A stretch of 64,000 nucleotides of DNA from positions 21,970-85,969 of the forward strand of contig BTVE01000005.1 in NCBI GenBank assembly GCA_045862915.1. Direction: 5' to 3'. A model generated the notes under the pieces. The model saw only the letters and a list, made by a program, of their open reading frames with translations. It was not told the origin of the DNA and did not search any database. Positions 7,541 to 30,885 of this stretch are shown here, piece by piece (position 1 is the first letter of the stretch; each line of letters starts with the position of its first letter). Position numbers and translations under genes: made by a program. Source of the DNA: Acidimicrobiia bacterium. Its GTDB lineage: Bacteria > Acidobacteriota > Vicinamibacteria > Vicinamibacterales > SCN-69-37.

Positions 7541-10144
7541 CTAATCCAACCCCAGCCGCTTCCGCTTCACGAACAGTCCTTTGCGCGAGATGCCGAGCAG
7601 CTGTGCGGCGTCCGTGACCTTCCCGCGGGTCTGGTCGAGCGCGCGTTCGATGAACGCGCGTTCGACTTCATCAACAGCCAATTCGAGCGGCTGATCCAGG
7701 CGCACGGTCACATGAGGTCCGGACGGCACGTCGCTGCGTGGATGCGCCGCGTGCCACGGGCCGGCGACGTCGTGTGAAAGATCATCACTCCGCAAGGTGG
7801 CCTCATCGTCGGCGACGGCCACCATTCGGCGGATCTCGTTGTACAACTGCCTCAGGTTGCCCGGCCAGTCGTAGAGCAGAAATGCGGCCACGACATCGTC
7901 ACCGACCGTGATGTGATGTCGGCCGCATTCAGCCATCGCCTTGCGCACGAAGAACGCCGTGAGCGCGGGGATTTCGTCCTTGCGTTCCCTGAGTGGGGGT
8001 AGTGACAGCGCCGCGACGCGCAGGCGGTACAGCAGATCGCTCCGGAACCGTCCCTGTTCAACCATCGTTTCCAGCCGTGCGTTGGTGGCAGCGACCACGC
8101 GCACGGACACACGCATCGGTTTGGCGTCCCCCACCGGATGGACCTCGCCGCACTCGAGAAACCGCAGCAACTTCGGCTGCAGCGCCAGTTCCAGGTCGCC
8201 GATTTCATCCAGGAAGAGTGTGCCGTGGTCCGCGCTGCGGATGACGCCGGCCGACGACTCATGGGCGCCGGTGAATGCGCCGCGCCGGTGGCCGAACAGC
8301 TGGCTCTCGACGAGATCCCGCGGAATGGCGGAGGCATTAAAGGGAACGAATGGGCCGCGCCTTACTTTGCTGCTGTCGTGAATCAGCCGTGCGAAGACTT
8401 CCTTGCCTGTGCCGGTTTCACCCGTAATGAGGATGGGCAGGTCGGTCGTGGCCAGGCGTTCGGTGATGCGCAGCAGTTCCTGCATCCGCGGCGACCAGAA
8501 CACTGTGTCGTCCGGGCTGTTGGGCATCGTCATCGGCCACAGCCGTTCATCCGCATCGTCGTCCTTGTTGACGGAGGCGCCAAGCAGGTCGGTGACGCTT
8601 TTGACGATGGCGACTTCCTCGAGGGAGGCCAGATCCTGGACGTCGATCGTAATCGTGCGGTCGTTGTTCGACAGGTCGATGCGGCAGCCCTGGCTGCCCC
8701 GGAACTCCCACGATGCCGTCAGGGCACTGGTGGCCTGGTCGTGTCCCTCTGGGCGTTCACTGAGGCGGACGCGCGTGCGCAGCGGCGTGTCGTGCAGCAA
8801 CGACCGCACGCGTTCGGCCATCAGGTCGAGTGAGCGACCGGCGTTGAGGATGGCGGCCGCATTGCTCAGAAGCAGCGCGCTGTTGTCGGTATCAGCTTGC
8901 CGCCGTCGTTCAAGTGGTGGGGCGCCCTGAGACGCACCGCCCGGGCTGTTCGCGCGTTCGTGTTCGGCGATCCATCCGAGGAAGCGATGTTCGATCGCGT
9001 CACAGGCGCGGGCGGCGCGATCGAAGTGCCGCTGGGCCTGCACGACGTCTCCGCGATGCGCGAGACACACGGCGGTGGCGGTTTCGACGTGAATCATCGG
9101 GTCGACGGCGCCCTTGGGGCAAGCGCTCATTGCCCCGACGAGTGACGTATTGGCGGCGTCGTGCTGCCCGAGGCGTGCGAGGGCTTTTGCTCGGGCCGCC
9201 AGCAGCGTGGCCCGCCAGGTGCGGAGGTGGCGACGCTCGAGCTCCGGATCTGCCTCGTCGACGATGGCGACGATGTTGGTCCATTCTCCGCGGAGGGAAT
9301 GGAAGAGGCAGCGGGTGATCTGGTGCGTCAGGTCGTACCAGGACCTGGCGGGCACACGCTGGGTCGCGATCGTCTTACGGCACTGTTCGATCAGGTCGGC
9401 GGCTTCGGCGAGGTTGCCGAGCCGACAGCGGTGTGCGACGAGAGTGTCTAGAATGCCCAGCCTGAGGAAGCTCAGTTGACCGACGCGGCCGAGGGCTTCG
9501 TCGGCGAGTCTGACGGACGTTTCATTCTGTCCAGTCCACAAGAGGAGTTGGCTGAGATTGCCCAAGAGGCCGACAATGGGCATCAAGGTTATCTGCTGTT
9601 GAGCCAAACGCAGGCCATCCGCAGTTCTGCTGAGTGCCGTCCTTAGGTCGCCTGAGCTGGTCGCCACGCTCGCTTCGAGCAGATTGACCGCATCTGTCAA
9701 AGACGCCTCCCTGCTACTGCGTGCCAAACCTCTCGCAATGTCCAAATGGACAACAGCATCGGCGAGCGAGCCCCGAAGCGTCTCAAGCTTCGCGACGGCG
9801 ACGTGAAGGCGGGCGATTGACGCCGCATCCCCAATCTCGGTTGCTTTGTGTCGAAGCCGCGCAAGTAGAGGGGCCGTTTCGGACGGTGGGTAGAAAGGAG
9901 CTGCCCTAGAGACCCTGACGAACAGCAAATCGAGGCTCTCATGGGGGGCCGCAACTGATGATTCGTCGAGAGACGCCAACTGCTCCAGCGCACCAGAGGC
10001 ATCGCCCGAGTCGAACGTGGCGAGTGCCACTATTCGAAGGTCGCTTGGGGAGCTTGACCCGCAGTCTGCGACACACCGTATCGCAGCCTGGAGGTCGCCC
10101 GCAATGTACCGTTCCTGCGCAGTATCCAATGGTCCCCTGCCCAT
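7541..10144 (-). CDS. Sigma-54-dependent transcriptional activator (bEBP) with long N-terminal TPR-like helical region
   Basis: GETGTGKE Walker A, ESQLFGHRRGAFTGA, FLDEIG, WPGNLRQL, Fis-type HTH (AAQLLGISRKGL); no REC domain. Start is ATG 10144 or TTG 10216. Confidence 0.9.
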   Translation of the reverse strand: MGRGPLDTAQERYIAGDLQAAIRCVADCGSSSPSDLRIVALATFDSGDASGALEQLASLDESSVAAPHESLDLLFVRVSRAAPFYPPSETAPLLARLRHKATEIGDAASIARLHVAVAKLETLRGSLADAVVHLDIARGLARSSREASLTDAVNLLEASVATSSGDLRTALSRTADGLRLAQQQITLMPIVGLLGNLSQLLLWTGQNETSVRLADEALGRVGQLSFLRLGILDTLVAHRCRLGNLAEAADLIEQCRKTIATQRVPARSWYDLTHQITRCLFHSLRGEWTNIVAIVDEADPELERRHLRTWRATLLAARAKALARLGQHDAANTSLVGAMSACPKGAVDPMIHVETATAVCLAHRGDVVQAQRHFDRAARACDAIEHRFLGWIAEHERANSPGGASQGAPPLERRRQADTDNSALLLSNAAAILNAGRSLDLMAERVRSLLHDTPLRTRVRLSERPEGHDQATSALTASWEFRGSQGCRIDLSNNDRTITIDVQDLASLEEVAIVKSVTDLLGASVNKDDDADERLWPMTMPNSPDDTVFWSPRMQELLRITERLATTDLPILITGETGTGKEVFARLIHDSSKVRRGPFVPFNASAIPRDLVESQLFGHRRGAFTGAHESSAGVIRSADHGTLFLDEIGDLELALQPKLLRFLECGEVHPVGDAKPMRVSVRVVAATNARLETMVEQGRFRSDLLYRLRVAALSLPPLRERKDEIPALTAFFVRKAMAECGRHHITVGDDVVAAFLLYDWPGNLRQLYNEIRRMVAVADDEATLRSDDLSHDVAGPWHAAHPRSDVPSGPHVTVRLDQPLELAVDEVERAFIERALDQTRGKVTDAAQLLGISRKGLFVKRKRLGLD

Positions 10145-10228
10145 GCCAGTTTGGCGCGGGCTAGTATAGGGGCAATAAGAGGGCTCTGGACCAGTCTCCT
10201 GCACAAACTGGTACAAGAAAGTAAGGGC

Positions 10229-12178
10229 CTAGTGCACCTTTCTCGTCGACTGTTCCTTGGCTTCCGACCTCGGAGAGTGATGTGCGCTCGAGAATCCGGA
10301 GATGCCCGACGCAAGCAACTGGGCAGCAGACTCCAGCATCCGATGGTGATCCTTCTTGAAGTCCTCGCTGCCATAGAGAGCGGCCACGCCGAGCAGCGCC
10401 TCGCCGTCGATGACTGGGCAGACCAGAGCCGAGCGCAGGGGGACCGGAAGGGCTCGAGCTACCGGACCGATATCGAGCGCAGCATCCGAGTTGAAGACTG
10501 CCTGCCGATGGGCGTACGCCCAACCGCTGATTCGTTCGCCCACGGCAATTCGGATTGACTCGATTGTTGACGAACCCGATCCCGAGCAGTACATCGGCAT
10601 GAGTTCACTGTTCCCTTGCATCGGGACGTAGAAGACAACCGACGCGGCGGGGATGACCCGACGCACGTGGCGGAAGAACACTTCCACGGCCACATTCAGA
10701 GAGGCGGCCTTCGGAAGTTCGCGTCGCAGTTCTGCGAACTCGCGCTCCTCAGCCGTCGCGGCACTGATCACGTCAAGCGCAGGGCTCCGAGAGGTCCTGA
10801 CCAGACCAGCTTCTGCTGCCACGTTCCGACCTTCCGCTTCGTCGATCTCTTCGAGCTTGTCGAGGATTTCCACGAAGCCGTCTACAACCCACGGGTCGTA
10901 CATTGAACCGCGTCGGTCAAGCAGTATTTGCTCAGCCTGCTGTCTGGTCATCCGTGGTCGATAGGGGCGATCGGAGGTCAACGCATCATAGCAGTCGACC
11001 ACCGACAGTATCCGCGCGCCGAGGGGGATTTCTTGACCCCTCAGACCATCGGGGTAGCCGCGACCATCCCAGTTCTCGTGGTGGTGCCTGACGATGGGCG
11101 CGACAGGATAGGGAAAGTCGATGCTCTTGAGGATGTTGGCGCCGACCGCCGCGTGTTCCTTCATCTTCTCGAACTCGGACGGCGTCAACGGGCCCGGCTT
11201 GTTCAGGATGTACTCCGGAATTGCAAGCTTTCCCGTATCGTGCAACAAGGCCGCGGCTTCGATCGCCCTCAGTTGCTTCTCGTCTTTCACGCCGAGATGC
11301 CTGGCGACCTCCATCGTGTACTGCTGCACTCGGCGGATGTGGCCGTGTGTCACCTGATCCTTGGCATCAATGGCCATTGCGAAGGCCTTGATGGTCGACA
11401 TGTGCACGCGTTCGATGGCTTCCAATCGTTCCTGTATTTCGTCGACCTGCCTTGCTGATTGCCGATACGTCAGGTAGAAGACCGCCATCAACGGAATGAT
11501 TACCAGTAGTCGCAGCGACACGTTCTCAGCGTCGCCAGATGCAATCAGTGACGCAATCGAAGCCCCAGCGAGGTAGTTGACGCCGAGGTGTTTGATGCCC
11601 CACCAGGTAATCCCGATATCTCTCAATATCGTGCCGACAGTGCTCGAGCGTGTCAGGGCGATCGCCGTCGACACCAGCGCAGCGTTCAATGAGAAGTAGA
11701 GAACGGTGAAGACGACCAATCCGTACGCGAATGTCCAGCCAGCGCTTGCAAGCGTCAACGGGGAGGGCCCCGCGATCGCATGCAATGCGTATGATGCCAA
11801 CCACACTGAAAGGGGCGGTGCAGCAAGATTAAACGGTGTTTGGACGGTATCGAGACGGCGTTTCGTGTACCAGATCTTGGCTGACAGGACGATTGCGTCG
11901 AGCAGTACAAGAACGGTGCCGACGGCTTGGCCGTAGATTAGCGTGCCCGAGAATACAAACGTTTCTGAGACAGAGAATCTGGCACCAATCGACTGAAAAC
12001 GTACCGACAAGAAGCCGGAGAAGAGCGTCAGCAGTGTGAGGTAATACCAGTCGTTCCCAGGCGGGTGCGTGAAGAACACGCTGCGCACGCTTGCAATGGA
12101 AGCTGCAACGCCGGCAATGATAACCAGACCGACGTATACAAGTGCCCGAACTGGATAGGTACTGGAAGGGCTGGCCAT
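10229..12178 (-). CDS. Membrane-bound HD-GYP phosphodiesterase with about 7 N-terminal TM helices and C-terminal GAF-like domain
   Basis: Hydrophobic first ~240 aa; LLHDTGK, HHENWDGRGYPDGL, DCYDALTSDRPYR; C-terminal GERISGW...SALVCPV. Confidence 0.9.
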   Translation of the reverse strand: MASPSSTYPVRALVYVGLVIIAGVAASIASVRSVFFTHPPGNDWYYLTLLTLFSGFLSVRFQSIGARFSVSETFVFSGTLIYGQAVGTVLVLLDAIVLSAKIWYTKRRLDTVQTPFNLAAPPLSVWLASYALHAIAGPSPLTLASAGWTFAYGLVVFTVLYFSLNAALVSTAIALTRSSTVGTILRDIGITWWGIKHLGVNYLAGASIASLIASGDAENVSLRLLVIIPLMAVFYLTYRQSARQVDEIQERLEAIERVHMSTIKAFAMAIDAKDQVTHGHIRRVQQYTMEVARHLGVKDEKQLRAIEAAALLHDTGKLAIPEYILNKPGPLTPSEFEKMKEHAAVGANILKSIDFPYPVAPIVRHHHENWDGRGYPDGLRGQEIPLGARILSVVDCYDALTSDRPYRPRMTRQQAEQILLDRRGSMYDPWVVDGFVEILDKLEEIDEAEGRNVAAEAGLVRTSRSPALDVISAATAEEREFAELRRELPKAASLNVAVEVFFRHVRRVIPAASVVFYVPMQGNSELMPMYCSGSGSSTIESIRIAVGERISGWAYAHRQAVFNSDAALDIGPVARALPVPLRSALVCPVIDGEALLGVAALYGSEDFKKDHHRMLESAAQLLASGISGFSSAHHSPRSEAKEQSTRKVH

Positions 12179-12194
12179 GGGGGAGTCATGGCAG

Positions 12195-12229
12195 GCAATC
12201 CAAGGCAGGTGGTAGCCCGCCTTGGTTGC
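12195..12229 (-). terminator. Intergenic stem-loop (mRNA stabiliser or partial terminator)
   Basis: GCAACCAAGGCGGG-CTACCA-CCTGCCTTGGATTGC, ~14-bp stem with one GU pair and one bulge; no U-tract. Confidence 0.5.
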
Positions 12230-12262
12230 TTAGCTCCAAACGATAATCGAGCGAATCACCAT
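12230..12262 (-). CDS. Small peptide ORF MVIRSIIVWS (10 aa), putative signal-peptide precursor
   Basis: GGAG-acagac-ATG GTG ATT CGC TCG ATT ATC GTT TGG AGC TAA, between the subtilase and the HD-GYP gene. Confidence 0.6.
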   Translation of the reverse strand: MVIRSIIVWS

Positions 12263-12307
12263 GTCTGTCTCCGAGAGTCCGGTGGATTCTTGCTTGCCTT
12301 GTGAGCC

Positions 12308-14188
12308 CTAGTTGTCCCACACCATGGTGTTGTCCCAGACCATGGTGTTGTCCCACACCATCGTCTGGCCCCAGAAGTGCGAGTTGTCCCACACCATGGT
12401 GTTGTCCCAGACCATGGTGTTGTCCCACACCATCGTCTGCCCCCAGAAGTGGGAGTTGTCCCAGACCATGGTGTTATCCCAGACCATGGTGTTGTCCCAG
12501 ACCATGGTGTTGTCCCACACCATGGTGTTGTCCCACACCATCGTCTCGCCCCACAGCGTTACGTTTCCTGGGATGGTCTTGTTGTCCCAGACCATGGTGT
12601 TGTCCCACACCATCGTCTGACCCCAGGTCGACGCCTGGCCGAAGGTAATGCCGCTGGCCCACGCCTGTTCGCCACCGATGGTGTTGGTCAGGTCGAGGCG
12701 GTTGATGTTGCGGTTCTTGGCGAAGCGGACAGCCAGCGCCACGTTCATGCTGCCGGCGCCCTGCTTGACCAGGCCCACGCCCGGCAGGTGCTGCGCGGTG
12801 AGTTGCAGCGCGGTTTTCACTTCAAACGGCGTGAGGTCAGGACGCGCCTGCAGCACCAACGCGGCGGCACCGCTGGTCGCCGCAGCGGCCATGCTGGTGC
12901 CCGAGAGCCACATGTACGACCCGCCGCGCGCGCCAATCACGCGACGATCGCGAAGGTCAGGATTGCGCCACAACGTCGACCCGGTCGGAATGGCCGACAC
13001 GATCTTGTTGCCCGGCGCGAGAAGGTCCGGCTTGAGCAGCGCATTGGCCGGCAACTGTGACGGGTCTTGCGGCGCCGGCGTGCCGGGATCAACCACCGGA
13101 CCAGCCGAGCTGAACGTTGCAGGCGTGTCGTCGCTGCGGAACACCGTGCCGTTGGTGTTGAGCGCGCCCGCCGTCAGTGCATACGGCGAGTAGCCCGGCG
13201 ACACGATGGAGGCCAACACCGGTTTGTGATCTTCCGTGCGGCCCAGGTTGCCGGCCGACGCCACGACCACCAGACCCGACTCAACCGCGCGCTTGACCGC
13301 GTCCGCGAGTGGATCCTCGCGATACGGCTGACCCGCGGGGTGCCCCAGCGAGAGATTCAGGATGCGGACGTCGTAAAACTCGCGATACCGGATGAAGTGA
13401 TCGATTGCCTCGATGACGTCCGCCACATAGCCGGACCCATCAGCGCCGAGCACCTTGGCACTGACCAGCGTCGCGCCGGGCGCCATGCCCGTATACGCCG
13501 CCGTGTTCGTGCCATTCTCACGCGACCAGCCACGGCTGCCGTCACCACTGCCGGCGATGATGCCCGCCACGTGGGTGCCGTGTCCGTACTCGTCATCGCC
13601 GCCCCAACGCAGGCCCTCACCCGTAAAGTCGAGGCGCGCGCTCACGCGGTTGCGCAGGTCGCCGTGATTGGCAATGCCTGAGTCGATGACCGCAACGCCA
13701 ATACCGAGACCCGTGGTGCCGCCATACGACGAACCGTTGGCACCCTGCCACACCTGGTTGGCACCGGTGGCCTGCGAGGTCACCGCCATCATCGAATACA
13801 CGCGAACGTTCTCGATGATGCCCGACACCTGCGGATCGTTGGCGAGCTCGTCAATCTGGTCCGCCGTGCCTTCAAACAGGCCGCCGATGATCATCCGCTT
13901 CATCAGACGCACGCCGTACTTGCGGCCGAGACGATCCACCACGGACTGGGGCGCGGTCAGCACCACCTGGAACAACTGCTGCTCGGCGCGTGAGGTCCGC
14001 GCATTCCACGCCGCGCGGTACCGATTCGATTTGGCCGAGGCGATCTTGGAGGCCAGCTCGGGAGACATCCGCCGACGCCAGTCGGCCGACGCCGTCGCCG
14101 GTGTGAGCAATCCGAAGATCAGGGCTGCGCCAAGAATGCCGGCCAGCGCGCGACCTACACGACGAGTAGAAGGGTTGTTGACGTCCAT
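12308..14188 (-). CDS. Secreted S8 subtilisin-like serine protease with C-terminal Trp hexapeptide repeats
   Basis: Signal peptide (...LIFGLLTPATASA), propeptide-like region, triad VAVIDSG / HGTHVAG / GTSMAA, SAGN oxyanion. Start at ATG 14188, since the track's extension covers the promoter. Confidence 0.92.
   Translation of the reverse strand: MDVNNPSTRRVGRALAGILGAALIFGLLTPATASADWRRRMSPELASKIASAKSNRYRAAWNARTSRAEQQLFQVVLTAPQSVVDRLGRKYGVRLMKRMIIGGLFEGTADQIDELANDPQVSGIIENVRVYSMMAVTSQATGANQVWQGANGSSYGGTTGLGIGVAVIDSGIANHGDLRNRVSARLDFTGEGLRWGGDDEYGHGTHVAGIIAGSGDGSRGWSRENGTNTAAYTGMAPGATLVSAKVLGADGSGYVADVIEAIDHFIRYREFYDVRILNLSLGHPAGQPYREDPLADAVKRAVESGLVVVASAGNLGRTEDHKPVLASIVSPGYSPYALTAGALNTNGTVFRSDDTPATFSSAGPVVDPGTPAPQDPSQLPANALLKPDLLAPGNKIVSAIPTGSTLWRNPDLRDRRVIGARGGSYMWLSGTSMAAAATSGAAALVLQARPDLTPFEVKTALQLTAQHLPGVGLVKQGAGSMNVALAVRFAKNRNINRLDLTNTIGGEQAWASGITFGQASTWGQTMVWDNTMVWDNKTIPGNVTLWGETMVWDNTMVWDNTMVWDNTMVWDNTMVWDNSHFWGQTMVWDNTMVWDNTMVWDNSHFWGQTMVWDNTMVWDNTMVWDN
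12311..12634 (-). repeat. Coding 18-bp tandem repeat: 13 x TMVWDN with xxxWG[QE] spacers, including a duplicated 72-bp block
   Basis: AC[CG]ATGGT[GC]TGGGA[CT]AAC units; 12311-12382 and 12383-12454 differ only at synonymous sites. Confidence 0.95.
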
Positions 14189-14214
14189 AATTACGCTCGT
14201 TGACGTTTGCCTAC

Positions 14215-14229
14215 GCAGGTACCGCACCA
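14215..14229 (-). promoter_or_regulatory. Sigma-54 (-24/-12)-like promoter of the subtilase operon
   Basis: TGGTGCGGTACCTGC with GG-N10-GC spacing, 26 nt upstream of ATG 14188. Confidence 0.6.
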
Positions 14230-14422
14230 CACAACTGCACGATGAAGATTTCGTAAAACGCTGACAGTACTGCACTTGCTGTTCGGCCACGATTCGATCA
14301 CGCGTCGCGACTTCGCAGTGGCGAAGCGGTCGTCACCCGTAAGTCGTGAAACTGCACCATAATACGCCCGTTCAGGACGGTACGCCACAGGAGAATCTGC
14401 TCAGCCAGCACTGAGGTTACTC

Positions 14423-16126
14423 ATGCCCACAATCCACTCGATCCGGCCTGTCAGAACGTTGTTTTGCCTTTTGTTTGCCGTTGCCGCTGCGCACTGTAGT
14501 GGGGGGGCTGGTACTCCACAACAGGTTGGGGGAGGGACACTCAAGGCGAGTTACCGCACCGAACCCACCAACTACATCCGGATGGCGGTCTCCCCGTCCG
14601 CACCGAACCACACGGTCAGCCTCCTCACCCAGGCAACCCTGGTCCGGACGTCACCAACGGGCGAGTTGGAGCCCCGCCTCGCGCAGAAGTGGACCATGTC
14701 GCCCGATGGGCTGACCTGGACACTCGACCTGCACCCGGAGGCGAAGTTTTCGGACGGCACGCCGCTGACCGCAGCCGACGTCCTGTTCACCCTGGCCGCC
14801 GTCGAGGGCCTGCCGGCCGCCGGCGACTTCACCGTGGAGGGGAAACCCGTCACCGCGCGCGCCCTCAGTGACCACCAGGTCGCCATCGTCTTCCCCGCGC
14901 CGTACGGCCCGGGCCTCGCGATGTTCGAAAACCTGTTCATCCTGCCCAGGCACAAGCTGGAATCCGCAAGAGCCAACCACACGTTGCCGACAGTCTGGGC
15001 CGTGGGCACGCTCCCGGCGGAGATCGTCGGCGCCGGCCCCTTCGTCGTGAAGGACCACGTGCCCGGTCAGCGCTTCCGCTTCGAACGCAATCCGCACTAC
15101 TTCATGAAGGACAACGAGGGCCGTCAGCTCCCGTACCTGGACGCCATCGACCTGTCGATCATCCCGGAATACGACGCCGAGATGGCGCGCCTGCTCGCCG
15201 GTGAAACGGATGTGGTCACCGACGCGGCCGCGCTCGAAGACCTCGCCTCACTCCAGGCGGCCGCGAAGGACGGTCGCATCAAATTGGCCGACGCCGGTCC
15301 CGCCATCGACGTCACCACGTTCTGGATCGACCTGAGTCCTCAAGCGCAGAGCCGCGGCGACAAGCCGTGGGTGCAGAAGCCGGAGTTTCGACGAGCCATT
15401 TCACACGCCGTCAATCGCCAGGCCATCGTCGACACGGTGTACTTCGGACAGGCCCTGCCGGCCTACGGCCCGATTACGCCGGGCCATGGTCCCTGGCACG
15501 TCGCAGATCTGCCGACCACGCCTTTTGACCAGGCGCGCGCGAAATCGCTGCTGTCGTCCATCGGTCTCACGGACCGGAACGGCGATGGCCAGCTGGAGGA
15601 CGAACGGGGCCGCCCGGCGCGTTTCAGCGTACTCAACCGCGCGGGTCTCCCGGATCGTGAGCGCACGCTGGCGATCGTCCAGGAGCATCTGCGCCAGATC
15701 GGTGTCGTCCTCGATATCGTGAACGTGAGTCAGCCGGAATTGCTCGACCGCATGACCAAACATGCCTACGAAGCCATCTACTTCGGCGGTCGCGCGCCGT
15801 CCCTGCAGCCGAATGCCTCCTTCTGGACGAGCCAGGGAGGCTTCCACTACTGGCATCCGGGACAGCCGACGCCGTCGACGCCGTGGGAAGCGCGGATCGA
15901 TGAGCTCTTTCGTCAGCAGGCCACGACCGTGGACGGCCCGGCACGCGTGCGCCTCTTTGCTGAGATGCAGCGTCTGCTCGCCGACAACCTGCCTGCCGTC
16001 TGGTTCGTGGCGCCGCGGGTCATCATCCCGGTCAGTGGTCGCGTGAACGGCGCGGTGCCGCGGATCTTCTTCCCGCCGATCCTCTGGAACGCGGATCGCC
16101 TCTCGGTGTCGAGCGGAGGGCAGTGA
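14423..16126 (+). CDS. ABC transporter substrate-binding lipoprotein, family 5 (peptide/nickel)
   Basis: Lipobox-like AAHC; FSDGTPLTAADVLFT, GAGPFVV, FERNPHY. Confidence 0.9.
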   Translation: MPTIHSIRPVRTLFCLLFAVAAAHCSGGAGTPQQVGGGTLKASYRTEPTNYIRMAVSPSAPNHTVSLLTQATLVRTSPTGELEPRLAQKWTMSPDGLTWTLDLHPEAKFSDGTPLTAADVLFTLAAVEGLPAAGDFTVEGKPVTARALSDHQVAIVFPAPYGPGLAMFENLFILPRHKLESARANHTLPTVWAVGTLPAEIVGAGPFVVKDHVPGQRFRFERNPHYFMKDNEGRQLPYLDAIDLSIIPEYDAEMARLLAGETDVVTDAAALEDLASLQAAAKDGRIKLADAGPAIDVTTFWIDLSPQAQSRGDKPWVQKPEFRRAISHAVNRQAIVDTVYFGQALPAYGPITPGHGPWHVADLPTTPFDQARAKSLLSSIGLTDRNGDGQLEDERGRPARFSVLNRAGLPDRERTLAIVQEHLRQIGVVLDIVNVSQPELLDRMTKHAYEAIYFGGRAPSLQPNASFWTSQGGFHYWHPGQPTPSTPWEARIDELFRQQATTVDGPARVRLFAEMQRLLADNLPAVWFVAPRVIIPVSGRVNGAVPRIFFPPILWNADRLSVSSGGQ

Positions 16127-17046
16127 CGCCGACGTGGGTGCGGTTTGTCGCGCGCCGCGCGGCCGCCGGCGTCGTGTTCGTCCTGTTCGTCTCCACGTGT
16201 GCCTTCACGCTCGCACGACTTGCGCCGGGCGACGAAACCACCGGTGACCGGCTTGCCGGCGTGTCCGACGATGTCATTGCCGCGCGCCGCGCAGAGCTGG
16301 GCCTCGACGATCCCGTCATCGTCCAGACCGCACGCTGGGTCGCGGGCCTCCTGACGCTCAACCTTGGCGAGTCGTCGTCGTATCGGCGTCCCGTTCGCGA
16401 TCTCGTGATTGAACGAGGCGCCAACACCGCATGGCTCGCGACGCTGGCTTTCTCGCTGGCCGCGTTGCTCGGGATTCCCGCGGGCATCTTCACGGGGGCG
16501 CATCACCGCCATCCACTCGCGCGGCTGATTACGGCAATCTCTCTTCTGCTGGTGGCATGCCCGCCGCTCATTGGCGCGCTGGGCCTCTTGTACCTCGGTG
16601 TGCTGACCGGTGTGCCGTCGACCGCGCAGGGCGCTCTGGCGTTGCCCACCATTGCGCTGGGCCTGCCGTTGGCGGCCATGCTCGAGCGTCTGCAGTCACA
16701 GGCGACGCGTGAGGTGATGGAGGCCGGTGGCATTCGCGCCGCCGCCGCGCGCGGGATTCCGCCTTCGCGCCTGGTCTGGCGTCACGCCGCGCGTCAGGCC
16801 CTGCGCCCGGTTCTCGGCGTGCTTGGCATCGTCATCGGCACGTTGTTCAGCGGATCGCTTGCAGTCGAACTGGTCGCCTCATGGCCCGGGCTCGGACGAC
16901 TATTGCTGGATGGTGTCCAGTCGGGCGACGTCACACTCATTGCCGGATGTGTATGGGCCGGCGCGATCTGCCTCGCGGTCGGAAATCTCGCAGCGGACCT
17001 GCTGGCGGCGCTTGTTGATCCACGCATCGCGGAGCGGGTGTCGTGA
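16123..17046 (+). CDS. Peptide ABC permease (OppB/DppB-like)
   Basis: LAPGD, LGLDDP, NLGESSSYRRPV, AAARG, WPGLGRLL, VDPRI. Confidence 0.88.
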   Translation: MTPTWVRFVARRAAAGVVFVLFVSTCAFTLARLAPGDETTGDRLAGVSDDVIAARRAELGLDDPVIVQTARWVAGLLTLNLGESSSYRRPVRDLVIERGANTAWLATLAFSLAALLGIPAGIFTGAHHRHPLARLITAISLLLVACPPLIGALGLLYLGVLTGVPSTAQGALALPTIALGLPLAAMLERLQSQATREVMEAGGIRAAAARGIPPSRLVWRHAARQALRPVLGVLGIVIGTLFSGSLAVELVASWPGLGRLLLDGVQSGDVTLIAGCVWAGAICLAVGNLAADLLAALVDPRIAERVS

Positions 17047-17996
17047 TCCGCGCGGCGTGGATCATGGTGGCCGTCATCGCCACGGCAACCCTGGCCGCCG
17101 ACTGGATCGCACCGCACGCGCCCTGGCAACAGTTCCCGGATCGTGCCTGGGCGCCGCCCATGCGCATTCATCTGCGTGACGCCAGCGGATGGCACGCACC
17201 GTTTGTTTATCGCCAGGTCCTTCGCGATCCCATCACCCGCGCCTTTGACGATGACACCACGGAGCGAATTCCGCTGCGCTGGTTCACCGAAGGACGTCTG
17301 GTGTCGGTCGACGATGCCCACGCACCGCTGCTGCTGCTCGGCGCCGATGCGCTGGGGCGGGACGTCTGGTCACGCCTTCTGCACGGCGCGCGCCTGTCGC
17401 TTGGGGTCGCGCTGGCCGGCGCCGCCGCAGCGTTGTGGCTGGGACTCTGGATTGGCGCGGCGGCCGGCATGTGGCGCGGCTGGCCGGACGTCATCATCAG
17501 CGGCGTCGCCGACCTGCTGATCGTGCTGCCGAGTGTGTACCTCGTCTTTCTCATGCGCGCGGCCGTGCCGCTCACACTCGATGCACCTGCCGTGTTCGGA
17601 TTGTTGACCCTGCTGTTTGCCGTGGCGGGCTGGCCGCATGTCGCGCGCGGGGTTCGCGCCGTCACGATGGTGGAACGTGAGAAGGAGTACGTCGAGGCCG
17701 CGCGGGCGGCCGGCGCGGGACGCTGGCGGCTGCTCAGACATGTGATGCCCGCGTCGTTCGGCTTTCTGCGAGCGGAGGCCGTCCTCCTGGTGCCGGCGTT
17801 TCTGGTCGCGGAGTCCACGATCTCGTACCTGGGGCTCGGCTTCCTCGAACCCACGCCCAGCTGGGGCTCGATGTTGCGCGACGCTGCCAGCCTCTCGGCC
17901 ATGCAACGCGCGCCGTGGCTGCTGACGCCGGCCCTGTCGCTGTTCGTCGTGGTCTTCCTCGTGCAGCGGCTCTCCCGCGGTCCGTGGCGAGCGTGA
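17043..17996 (+). CDS. Peptide ABC permease (OppC/DppC-like)
   Basis: LGADALGRDVWSRLLHGARLSL, EYVEAARAAG, YLGLG..PTPSWG. Confidence 0.88.
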   Translation: MIRAAWIMVAVIATATLAADWIAPHAPWQQFPDRAWAPPMRIHLRDASGWHAPFVYRQVLRDPITRAFDDDTTERIPLRWFTEGRLVSVDDAHAPLLLLGADALGRDVWSRLLHGARLSLGVALAGAAAALWLGLWIGAAAGMWRGWPDVIISGVADLLIVLPSVYLVFLMRAAVPLTLDAPAVFGLLTLLFAVAGWPHVARGVRAVTMVEREKEYVEAARAAGAGRWRLLRHVMPASFGFLRAEAVLLVPAFLVAESTISYLGLGFLEPTPSWGSMLRDAASLSAMQRAPWLLTPALSLFVVVFLVQRLSRGPWRA

Positions 17997-29940: not shown

Positions 29941-29956
29941 TGGCAGGCAACTTGCT
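29941..29956 (+). promoter_or_regulatory. Sigma-54 promoter upstream of lpxC
   Basis: TGGCAGGCAACTTGCT, near-consensus TGGCACG-N4-TTGCW. Confidence 0.7.
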
Positions 29957-29982
29957 TAATGGGGCAGCAGCTGACGTTTTTC

Positions 29983-30885
29983 ATGCCTGCTCAACGCACC
30001 CTCCGCCACGCTACCCACTGCATCGGAATCGGGCTCCATTCAGGGCAGAAAGTCACCATCGGTCTCAAGCCGGCTGAGCCAAACACGGGCATCCGCTTCG
30101 TTCGTACCGACCTTGGCGTAGAAGTGCCGGCGTCCATCGAGTGCCTGGGTGGACCGCAGCAGCTGCAGACCGAGCTTCGGCTGGGTGACGCGTCAATTGC
30201 CACAGTGGAGCATCTGTTGTCTGCCCTGCATGGGCTGGGGATCGACAACCTGCGTGTGGAGTTGAACCAGGCGGAAGTGCCGATCATGGACGGCAGCGCT
30301 GCGCCGTGGGTCTACCTGATTCAGAGCACCGGCATCCGCGAGCAGGCGGCCCCGCGCAAGACTATCGAGATCCTGCGGACCTTTGAAATTGCCGACGGCG
30401 ACAAGCGCATGGCGGTGCACCCGTATGACGGGTTCAAGGTCAGCTACGCGATCAGTTTTGATCACCCGCTCCTGCGTCAGCAGGAGGCGTCCATCGACAT
30501 CACCGAACAGGTGTACGTGGACGAAATCGCTCCGGCGCGGACCTTCGGCTTCCTGAAGGACGTGGAACTCATGCGCCAGCGCGGCCTGGCGCTGGGTGGT
30601 TCACTCGACAACGCCATTGTGGTCGGTGAGACCGGTGTGTTGAACCCGCTGCGGTTTGACGATGAATTTGTGCGCCACAAGGTGCTTGACGCGATTGGTG
30701 ACCTGGCCCTGATCGGCCGGGCGCTGCGCGGGCATGTGGTGGTGCACCGGGGCGGTCATGCCCTGCATACGAGGTTCGCGACTGAACTCCTCCGTCAGCG
30801 CGACGCGTGGCGCCTTGTGGACGCGAGCGAGCCGGCGGCTGCACCCGCCGCCGCCCGCGTCCCCGCCCGTTCCACCAGCCGCTAG
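29983..30885 (+). CDS. lpxC: UDP-3-O-acyl-N-acetylglucosamine deacetylase
   Basis: QRTL, GIGLHSG, TVEHLLSAL, PIMDGS, ARTFGF, RHKVLDAIGD. Confidence 0.95.
   Translation: MPAQRTLRHATHCIGIGLHSGQKVTIGLKPAEPNTGIRFVRTDLGVEVPASIECLGGPQQLQTELRLGDASIATVEHLLSALHGLGIDNLRVELNQAEVPIMDGSAAPWVYLIQSTGIREQAAPRKTIEILRTFEIADGDKRMAVHPYDGFKVSYAISFDHPLLRQQEASIDITEQVYVDEIAPARTFGFLKDVELMRQRGLALGGSLDNAIVVGETGVLNPLRFDDEFVRHKVLDAIGDLALIGRALRGHVVVHRGGHALHTRFATELLRQRDAWRLVDASEPAAAPAAARVPARSTSR

Follow-up and report, generated by a model that had tools for sequence, protein, structure and literature searches.

The locus described here lies in a stretch of 64,000 nucleotides (contig BTVE01000005.1, positions 21,970 to 85,969 of the forward strand) from an acidobacterium of the order Vicinamibacterales, a group of soil and sludge bacteria. 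This whole stretch is called the window, and positions are counted from its first letter. On the minus strand, a gene for an S8 subtilase, whose protein ends in Trp-containing hexapeptide repeats (W-repeats), is followed by a gene for a membrane HD-GYP protein and by a gene for a sigma-54 activator. The gap between the stop codon of the protease gene (12310-12308) and the ATG of the HD-GYP gene (12178) was 129 nt, and it contained a very short open reading frame (ORF), referred to as the micro-ORF, which encodes the peptide MVIRSIIVWS. After the ATG, its codons were GTG ATT CGC TCG ATT ATC GTT TGG AGC, followed by TAA. A preliminary description of the window had reported a ten-codon ORF with a Shine–Dalgarno (SD) sequence in a gap of about 130 bp between the two genes, and all factual elements of this report were correct when the sequence was read. 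The results given below indicate that the product of this ten-codon gene is probably a tiny peptide with a role in signalling or regulation.

The genome of the window (4.52 Mb) was searched in six frames with the motif M-x(0-7)-[ILVM][ILV][ILVA]W[SGTDE][DENSA]?-stop. Three matches were obtained, and only the window copy was preceded by an SD sequence. One of the other matches, MCTQRIIVWG, is an ORF of similar shape on contig C56 (L111:4021-4053, plus strand). It had no SD sequence, and its neighbours were a gene for a LuxR-type response regulator on one side and, on the other, a truncated second copy of the helix-turn-helix (HTH) region of that gene. It was set aside as a probable relic of the N-terminus of a response regulator (receiver domain), with the pattern M-x-x-R-I-I-V-.-D. 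In addition, an Rfam scan of positions 10000-15000 revealed no relevant family, the sole match being a chance internal ribosome entry site (E 0.79), and a scan for sigma-70 promoters and intrinsic terminators between 11800 and 14800 gave nothing at the micro-ORF.

The conservation of the micro-ORF was investigated at syntenic loci, all of which came from one order and are related, and most of which belonged to metagenome-assembled genomes (MAGs). For the first set, the HD-GYP protein was used as the synteny anchor, and 27 loci were obtained from 61 related genomes. A short ORF ending in [ILV][ILV][IVA]-W-[SGDT]-stop was present between the W-repeat protease and the HD-GYP gene in 26 of the 27 loci, with peptides such as MVIRLIIVWS, MAKRSIIVWS, MLTQEIIVWS, MINISAIIVWS, and MQKIIVWD; at the remaining locus (L028) the upstream gene was different. 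The second set, 80 further public loci labelled almost throughout as Vicinamibacterales, Vicinamibacteria or Acidobacteriota MAGs, showed the same feature (MRIIVWTD, MTIIAWGS, MRTIIVWD, MKTLIVWGE, and MSRLIVWGD among others). Removal of duplicates left 85 non-redundant Vicinamibacterales loci in which HD-GYP is preceded by a W-repeat ORF, and these were scanned by a fixed script for an ORF of 7-13 codons ending in [ILV][ILV][IVA]-W-x(1-2)-stop. The script detected the micro-ORF on the sense strand in 83 of the 85 loci; the two misses (L066 and L103) were boundary errors, and both loci have the micro-ORF by eye. The same script found no such ORF on the reverse strand of these spacers (0/85), and only 0.3% of dinucleotide shuffles of the spacers yielded one. 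The expectation that a ribosome-binding site and a short ORF ending in VW would recur at homologous loci was confirmed by these counts, and a chance origin, which the preliminary description had allowed for, was not supported. The micro-ORF is real and is not a product of chance.

The coding signature and the translation signals were evaluated on 91 micro-ORFs. The length was 7-13 codons, mostly 8-10. The start codon was ATG in 81 cases and GTG in 10, and a strict SD 4-mer (GGAG, GAGG or AGGA) was found upstream of 74 micro-ORFs. Residues were kept while their codons changed. For instance, the position two residues before the Trp (W-2) was Ile in 85 of the micro-ORFs, encoded by ATC (52), ATT (32) and ATA (1). 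Likewise, the Ile at W-3 was spelled ATC, ATT or ATA, the Val was spelled GTT, GTC or GTG, and one serine was encoded by TCG in place of AGC. The stop codons were also mixed (TAG 51, TAA 25, TGA 15). In an alignment of nine loci from one genus, the only invariant columns of the spacer were the ATG and the first and second codon positions of I-I-V-W-S; CGGAG was nearly invariant, and the flanks could not be aligned. As judged from these patterns, selection acts on the peptide, the residues being kept while third positions and stop codons vary. Furthermore, the GC content of the micro-ORF was 45%, compared with 53% for the intergenic spacer and 65% for the genome, and Val was encoded by GTT in 69% of cases in the micro-ORFs compared with 20% in the protease repeats. 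Such an AT-rich, GTT-preferring micro-ORF fits selection for an unstructured initiation region, and the GTT preference could also hint at a constraint at the nucleotide level. Since the whole ORF comprises 7-13 codons in the 91 examples, it has no room for a signal sequence or a pro-region, which agrees with the earlier statement that the peptide carries no secretion signal.

The number of copies per locus was counted by the script at the 85 loci: one copy was found in 79, two copies in 2 (L017 and L022), three in 1 (L021), five in 1, and none in the 2 loci that were script misses. Inspection of the first set gave two copies at L023. The largest array was seen by eye at L011 (G016:C4, about 900-1370 when oriented from protease to HD-GYP), where seven tandem copies followed each other with a period of 69 nt. 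These encode MNRTIIVWG, MIRTIIVWG (three times), MICTIIVWS and MTCTIVVWD, and one further copy has lost its stop codon. Synonymous positions and stop codons set the three identical MIRTIIVWG copies apart, and the array opens with a copy that overlaps the stop codon of the protease gene (ATGA). Tandem copies favour a peptide acting in trans, because a leader acting in cis needs only one copy.

The micro-ORF is part of a five-part module that is kept throughout the Vicinamibacterales and consists of an oligopeptide permease-type (Opp-type) ATP-binding cassette (ABC) importer, the S8 repeat protease, the micro-ORF, the HD-GYP/GAF protein and a sigma-54 activator with a tetratricopeptide repeat (TPR) fold. 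The features of the window are given in Table 1. Among the 80 public loci, many of which are cut by contig ends, a gene for an SBP_bac_5 binding protein was found divergently upstream of the protease in 56, with many of the others truncated; the S8 catalytic domain was found in 62 and a downstream sigma-54 domain in 66. The HD-GYP and activator genes are often separated by just 1-20 nt. An apparent extra gene between them in a distant clade was rejected, the HD-GYP gene being longer there. By Pfam, no Rgg or HTH_XRE protein occurs in the module, the neighbours of the micro-ORF being HD_5/GAF and Sigma54_activat proteins, and none of the three module proteins has a family of its own in NCBIfam.

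Table 1. Features at the micro-ORF locus of the window.
Feature	Position	Strand	Details
Micro-ORF MVIRSIIVWS, 10 codons + TAA	12230..12262	minus	ATG 12262-12260, TAA 12232-12230
Shine–Dalgarno sequence GGAG	12269..12272	minus	6-nt spacer ACAGAC to the micro-ORF ATG
Stem-loop starting one base past the micro-ORF stop	12195..12229	minus	core CCAAGGCGGG / CCTGCCTTGG, extended GCAA / TTGC
Small hairpin holding the HD-GYP start codon	12174..12192	minus	ATG 12178-12176 in the 3' arm; predicted fold, window only
S8 subtilase gene	12308..14290	minus	Pfam Peptidase_S8, 1.6e-45; likely start ATG 14188, then a signal-peptide-like stretch
Hexapeptide repeat region at the protease C-terminus	12311..12640	minus	TMVWDN units, SHFWGQ spacers; from the translation
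Membrane HD-GYP (HD_5) + GAF gene	10229..12178	minus	649 residues; Pfam
Sigma-54 enhancer-binding protein gene	7541..10216	minus	891 residues; Pfam Sigma54_activat, AAA_lid_14, HTH_8
Divergent Opp-type ABC importer, SBP_bac_5 binding protein + two permeases	14423..17996	plus	Pfam; NCBIfam Opp4A-like

Over its last ~110 residues, the protease consists of TMVWDN hexapeptides with SHFWGQ interspersed, and the end of the protein falls exactly on a unit (...TMVWDNTMVWDN). In the AlphaFold2 (AF2) model, the catalytic domain was modelled well, and the repeat tail had a predicted local distance difference test (pLDDT) score below 30 without secondary structure. The tail is thus predicted to be non-globular, which is compatible with a cleavable tail, low confidence being no proof of disorder. 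A beta-solenoid, brought to mind by a sub-threshold Pfam Hexapep match, was not supported by this model, with its low pLDDT and its lack of strands. Such proteases are not confined to this locus: S8 proteases with W-hexapeptide repeats were found in 39 of 301 sampled Acidobacteriota genomes, with up to 13 matches per genome. In other families of the phylum (L136-L159), the repeat units included TLLWSD, SILWSD, TATWGD, QALWGD, GILWAD, and GALWGD, and the repeat tails of Acidobacteriota S8 proteases matched no Pfam family above the cut-off, only Hexapep below the threshold, and were not folded by AF2. In the protease alignment (A2), the motif H-R-A-R-L-S-x-D-L was conserved across the order at the start of the mature protease; it corresponds to about residues 36-47 of the window protein counted from ATG 14188, just past the signal-peptide-like stretch.

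The HD-GYP family includes phosphodiesterases of cyclic di-GMP (c-di-GMP). The N-terminal ~240 residues of the HD-GYP protein, which are the membrane part, matched no family. For the activator, AF2 predicted residues 1-565 with a pLDDT of 90.4 as a TPR superhelix (29-423) followed by a small alpha/beta domain. The top Foldseek matches of this N-terminus were MalT domain III, LGN, NprR (5dbk) and Rap (8rst, 4gyo), and sequence profiles gave TPR matches only below the Pfam curated cut-offs. The earlier name of the protein, a TPR-containing bacterial enhancer-binding protein, is therefore supported at the level of the fold. This predicted likeness is generic, since MalT domain III and LGN score as well as or better than the peptide receptors. 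A complex prediction with the TPR domain and the last 36 residues of the protease, not with the micro-peptide, gave a score of 0.00, which speaks neither for nor against binding. As a further observation, the TPR sensor domain (alignment A1) had only 17-21% identity between clades and was found by BLAST at 1e-5 in 22 of 80 loci, whereas the sigma-54 domain was easily aligned (66/80); this contrast would fit a changing ligand specificity. Across the whole window, the sigma-54 promoter consensus had 22 matches against 30.6 expected, and none was near the protease or the micro-ORF. The top match (29941-29956, plus strand, TGGCAGGCAACTTGCT, 1 mismatch) stops 3 nt short of the ORF 29959-30885, and a sigma-54 activator could act there.

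The end of the micro-peptide resembles the repeat unit of the neighbouring protease. In the window, I-I-V-W-S of the peptide aligns with T-M-V-W-D of the repeat, as the preliminary description had pointed out, and at all loci every peptide shares with the repeat unit of its neighbouring protease the pattern of two hydrophobic residues, W, and a small or acidic residue. In one clade, IVWTD is found exactly in both (SIVWTD repeats, MRIIVWTD peptide). The residue after W was identical in peptide and repeat at 33 of 83 loci, compared with a permutation mean of 21, and this value was reached in 4 of 10,000 permutations. Once the HD-GYP tree was used, the covariation at this residue was rejected as evidence for anything beyond one co-switch. 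A single event thus hints at co-evolution between peptide and repeat.

Taken together, the micro-ORF may be translated into a trans-acting peptide that copies the repeat unit of the protease and acts on the sensors of the module. We give this reading a rough probability of 0.5; it is favoured because of the tandem amplification, the likeness to the repeat, the importer and the TPR fold. The product would consist of (f)Met, 0-5 variable and often basic residues, I-I-V-W, and 1-2 small or acidic residues, and it would represent a free-standing copy of the repeat unit. The protease presumably releases hexapeptides, which the importer would return to the cell, and the micro-peptide may occupy the same binding site as these protease-derived hexapeptides. 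The most probable place for this putative site is the TPR sensor of the sigma-54 activator; failing that, it could be on the HD-GYP protein, in its membrane or GAF sensor. Unless it leaves through an exporter that went unnoticed, a peptide lacking an export signal would stay in the cytoplasm of its producer and set the threshold of the circuit there, as a private agonist or antagonist. The stem-loop behind the micro-ORF might then serve as a 3' stabiliser or a partial terminator, so that the message for the peptide would exceed that for HD-GYP and the activator.

Several points weigh against this reading. The release of hexapeptides by the protease is itself an assumption, and to our knowledge 7-13 residues are fewer than in any known secreted signalling precursor. 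On the HD-GYP tree, the WT type fell essentially into a single clade, leaving no more than 3 independent pairs, which is not significant; in most clades, the tails of peptide and repeat differ, with WDN repeats beside WS peptides and WG repeats beside WD peptides. Moreover, the micro-ORF depends on both of its neighbours. Among 15 HD-GYP paralogs without an upstream W-repeat protease, 14 had no such ORF anywhere in 3.1 kb, and the exception (L121) had an IS3-type transposase where the protease should be. Among the W-repeat proteases surveyed across the phylum, all six inside the order that are followed by HD-GYP have the micro-ORF (6/6), and none of the 16 W-repeat proteases outside the Vicinamibacterales was followed by HD-GYP or by a micro-ORF. 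It was likewise missing behind paralogous repeat proteases of the same order that lack HD-GYP (L140, L156), and at L114 and L124, where the protease directly abuts HD-GYP. The micro-ORF therefore occurs only where HD-GYP follows, and a role in the expression of HD-GYP fits equally well. As a separate observation, at L012 (G002) and L121 (G059) IS3-type transposase genes lie directly upstream of the micro-ORF, replacing or adjoining the 3' end of the protease gene, and the micro-ORF and HD-GYP stay intact despite the insertion. The RNA libraries can be cited on both sides. Metatranscriptome contigs from three runs of two studies (X15, 12204-12339; X17, 12089-12339; X18, 12029-12357) covered the micro-ORF with 0 mismatches, and X17 and X18 bridged the 3' end of the protease and the 5' end of HD-GYP; such contigs prove neither a single transcript nor translation, they show no strand, ends or level, and carry-over of DNA is possible. 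The HD-GYP body (10200-12028) was uncovered, which is not readable as lower expression. Furthermore, the region behind the micro-ORF is prone to folding, with no alternative pairing identified. In the window, the fold reached -32 kcal/mol over 68 nt (z -4.9). At the 83 loci, the 60 nt after the micro-ORF had a mean z of -1.46 against shuffles, with z < -1.5 in 39, compared with a mean z of +0.15 and 4 loci for the 60 nt before it as a control; the p-value overstates the case, because the loci are related. In addition, the HD-GYP ATG of the window had no SD sequence, and the same was true of 22 of 25 loci.

Several of these features would also fit a leader peptide acting in cis, which we consider the chief alternative, though a less likely one. 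A ribosome translating the micro-ORF, which the nascent I-I-V-W-x tail might cause to pause or arrest at the stop codon, would melt or mask the stem-loop and in this way control HD-GYP and the activator. The step controlled would be either the read-through of transcription into the SD-less HD-GYP gene and the tightly linked activator gene, or their translation. The restriction to the junction of protease and HD-GYP, the strong SD of the micro-ORF in front of an SD-less gene and the RNA contigs running from the micro-ORF into the 5' end of HD-GYP point in this direction. So do the stem-loop, which in the window begins 1 nt past the TAA, the second window hairpin, which holds the HD-GYP ATG, and the conservation, which is confined to the last 5-6 residues, those that would lie nearest the peptidyl-transferase centre. 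However, about half of the loci have no significant stem-loop, no terminator/antiterminator pair was identified, and the stem-loop, which has no T-run, was not called by a consensus terminator scan. The distance from the micro-ORF stop to the HD-GYP start was also variable (21-187 nt with a median of 62 nt in one measurement, 21-245 nt with a median of 69 nt in another). Re-initiation at HD-GYP was rejected on this basis, the reported distance peak for re-initiation being at 10-11 bp (PMC4833913). Arrays of 2-7 copies with their own SD sequences and conservation at the peptide level are not expected of a leader, stop codons of both release-factor classes occur, and the likeness to the protease repeat is left unexplained. 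The particular form proposed earlier, a Trp-sensing attenuator, is unlikely: the micro-ORF contains just one Trp codon, no terminator with a T-run follows it, and the downstream genes (HD-GYP/GAF and the sigma-54 activator) have no link to tryptophan. The ligand and leader readings are not mutually exclusive.

It has also to be considered whether the peptide acts on the protease itself, either as a substrate-like inhibitor or as an additional W-strand that pairs with the repeat tail, keeping the enzyme or its tail inert before export. That the peptide copies the repeat unit would be accounted for, as would the translational coupling of the first L011 copy to the protease (ATGA overlap) and the narrow spacing from the protease stop to the micro-ORF start (median 56 nt, interquartile range 44-64). 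We nevertheless regard such an action as improbable. The protease, with its signal-peptide-like start, would reach its fold only after leaving the cytoplasm, whereas nothing in the peptide directs its export; AF2 shows no ordered repeat domain to be complemented, and the 16 repeat proteases outside the order, like L140 and L156, do without the peptide. It is far less credible still that the micro-ORF is no gene at all but either an ORF open by chance or an element conserved as RNA or DNA. Its very short length and its over-use of GTT for Val would suit such an element, but the variation falls on third positions and stops while the residues, the start codon and the SD sequence are kept, the flanks are unconserved, no Rfam family was matched, and the reverse-strand and shuffle controls given above were empty or nearly so.

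The trans-acting peptide preferred here can be compared with known systems. In the RRNPP systems of Firmicutes and phages (Rap/Phr, NprR/NprX, PlcR/PapR, PrgX, and arbitrium AimR/AimP), the signal is made as a secreted pro-peptide, trimmed to 5-10 residues, and re-imported by an oligopeptide permease. Like these, the present module has a cytoplasmic sensor of TPR type, as far as its fold is concerned, a small peptide gene near the receptor gene, and an oligopeptide ABC importer alongside. It differs in that the whole product has 7-13 residues without a signal sequence or pro-region, and in that the output of the receptor is a sigma-54 AAA+ activator and not an HTH domain or a phosphatase. Moreover, the tail of the neighbouring protease is a second and much larger source of look-alike peptides, the unit includes HD-GYP, and the bacterium that carries it is a Gram-negative member of the Acidobacteriota. 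In the Rgg/SHP and ComR/ComS systems, the precursors have about 17-35 residues, and the ComS-derived peptide XIP carries a Trp near its C-terminus. They share with the micro-ORF short hydrophobic peptides that have no classical signal peptide and whose active part is C-terminal. In contrast, their receptors are HTH proteins of the Rgg family, no repeat is carried on a protease, and neither HD-GYP nor a sigma-54 protein takes part. ComS, which is reported to signal inside the cell that produces it (PMC6211226), offers the closest parallel to a ligand that stays in the cytoplasm without being exported.

The preliminary description had drawn a parallel to the pheromone/inhibitor pairs of enterococci. 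By analogy, one cytoplasmic receptor would here too be the object of competition between two hydrophobic peptides that are related but come from different genes, after import of the Opp type. One of them would be part of a larger protein that is secreted, and the other the product of a tiny gene beside the receptor. The enterococcal inhibitors of the cCF10/iCF10 and cAD1/iAD1 pairs are made as precursors of about 21-23 residues, which are exported and processed. Another difference is that the 'pheromone' would here derive from a tail of tandem repeats and not from the signal peptide of a lipoprotein. Tandem-repeat precursors cut by subtilisin-like proteases are known from yeast alpha-factor with Kex2 and from the Kex2-processed repeat peptides of fungi. 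The head-to-tail copies of a short Trp unit in a secreted protein and the subtilase in the pathway are alike, whereas in our case the repeats are fused to the protease itself, and the stand-alone micro-ORF has no counterpart there. The leader and arrest peptides, such as trpL, tnaC, ermCL and msrDL, resemble the micro-ORF in their very short ORF, the strong SD sequence upstream of a gene, the C-terminal conservation and the stem-loop directly behind. They differ from it in that the micro-ORF has no run of regulatory codons, a variable distance to the downstream gene, tandem arrays, and a likeness to the repeat of its neighbour.

On these comparisons, the system would appear to work most like RRNPP/Rgg-type signalling and the enterococcal pheromone/inhibitor pairs, yet it is not a member of those families, because there is no precursor, the output is a sigma-54 AAA+ activator, HD-GYP belongs to the unit, and the host is acidobacterial. 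More speculatively, the module may represent a circuit of an undescribed kind, although we hold this to be rather unlikely in its complete form. Signals in the form of Trp-hexapeptides borne by the protease would be returned by the Opp-type importer to the TPR sigma-54 activator and HD-GYP, and a cytoplasmic competitor or primer of 8-10 residues, which would need no processing and would be the shortest encoded signalling ligand known, would act beside them. The tails that differ between lineages (WS, WD, WG-x, WT-x, and W-D/E-E/D) might then be dialects.

We know of no peptide-based signalling in the Acidobacteriota, a phylum that is abundant in soil and wastewater. A literature search, with subscription-only papers and supplementary files outside its reach, found nothing on the micro-ORF, the module, the repeat proteases or peptide signalling in this lineage. 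The present results show that an ORF of 7-13 codons, which is far below the cut-offs of gene calling, can be under purifying selection across a bacterial order, and that comparative genomics alone can establish selection on such a micro-ORF. If the product is a leader peptide, it would be a new and very short regulatory nascent chain. If it is a ligand, synthetic 8-10-mers would provide a handle on c-di-GMP and sigma-54 control in bacteria that are hard to study.

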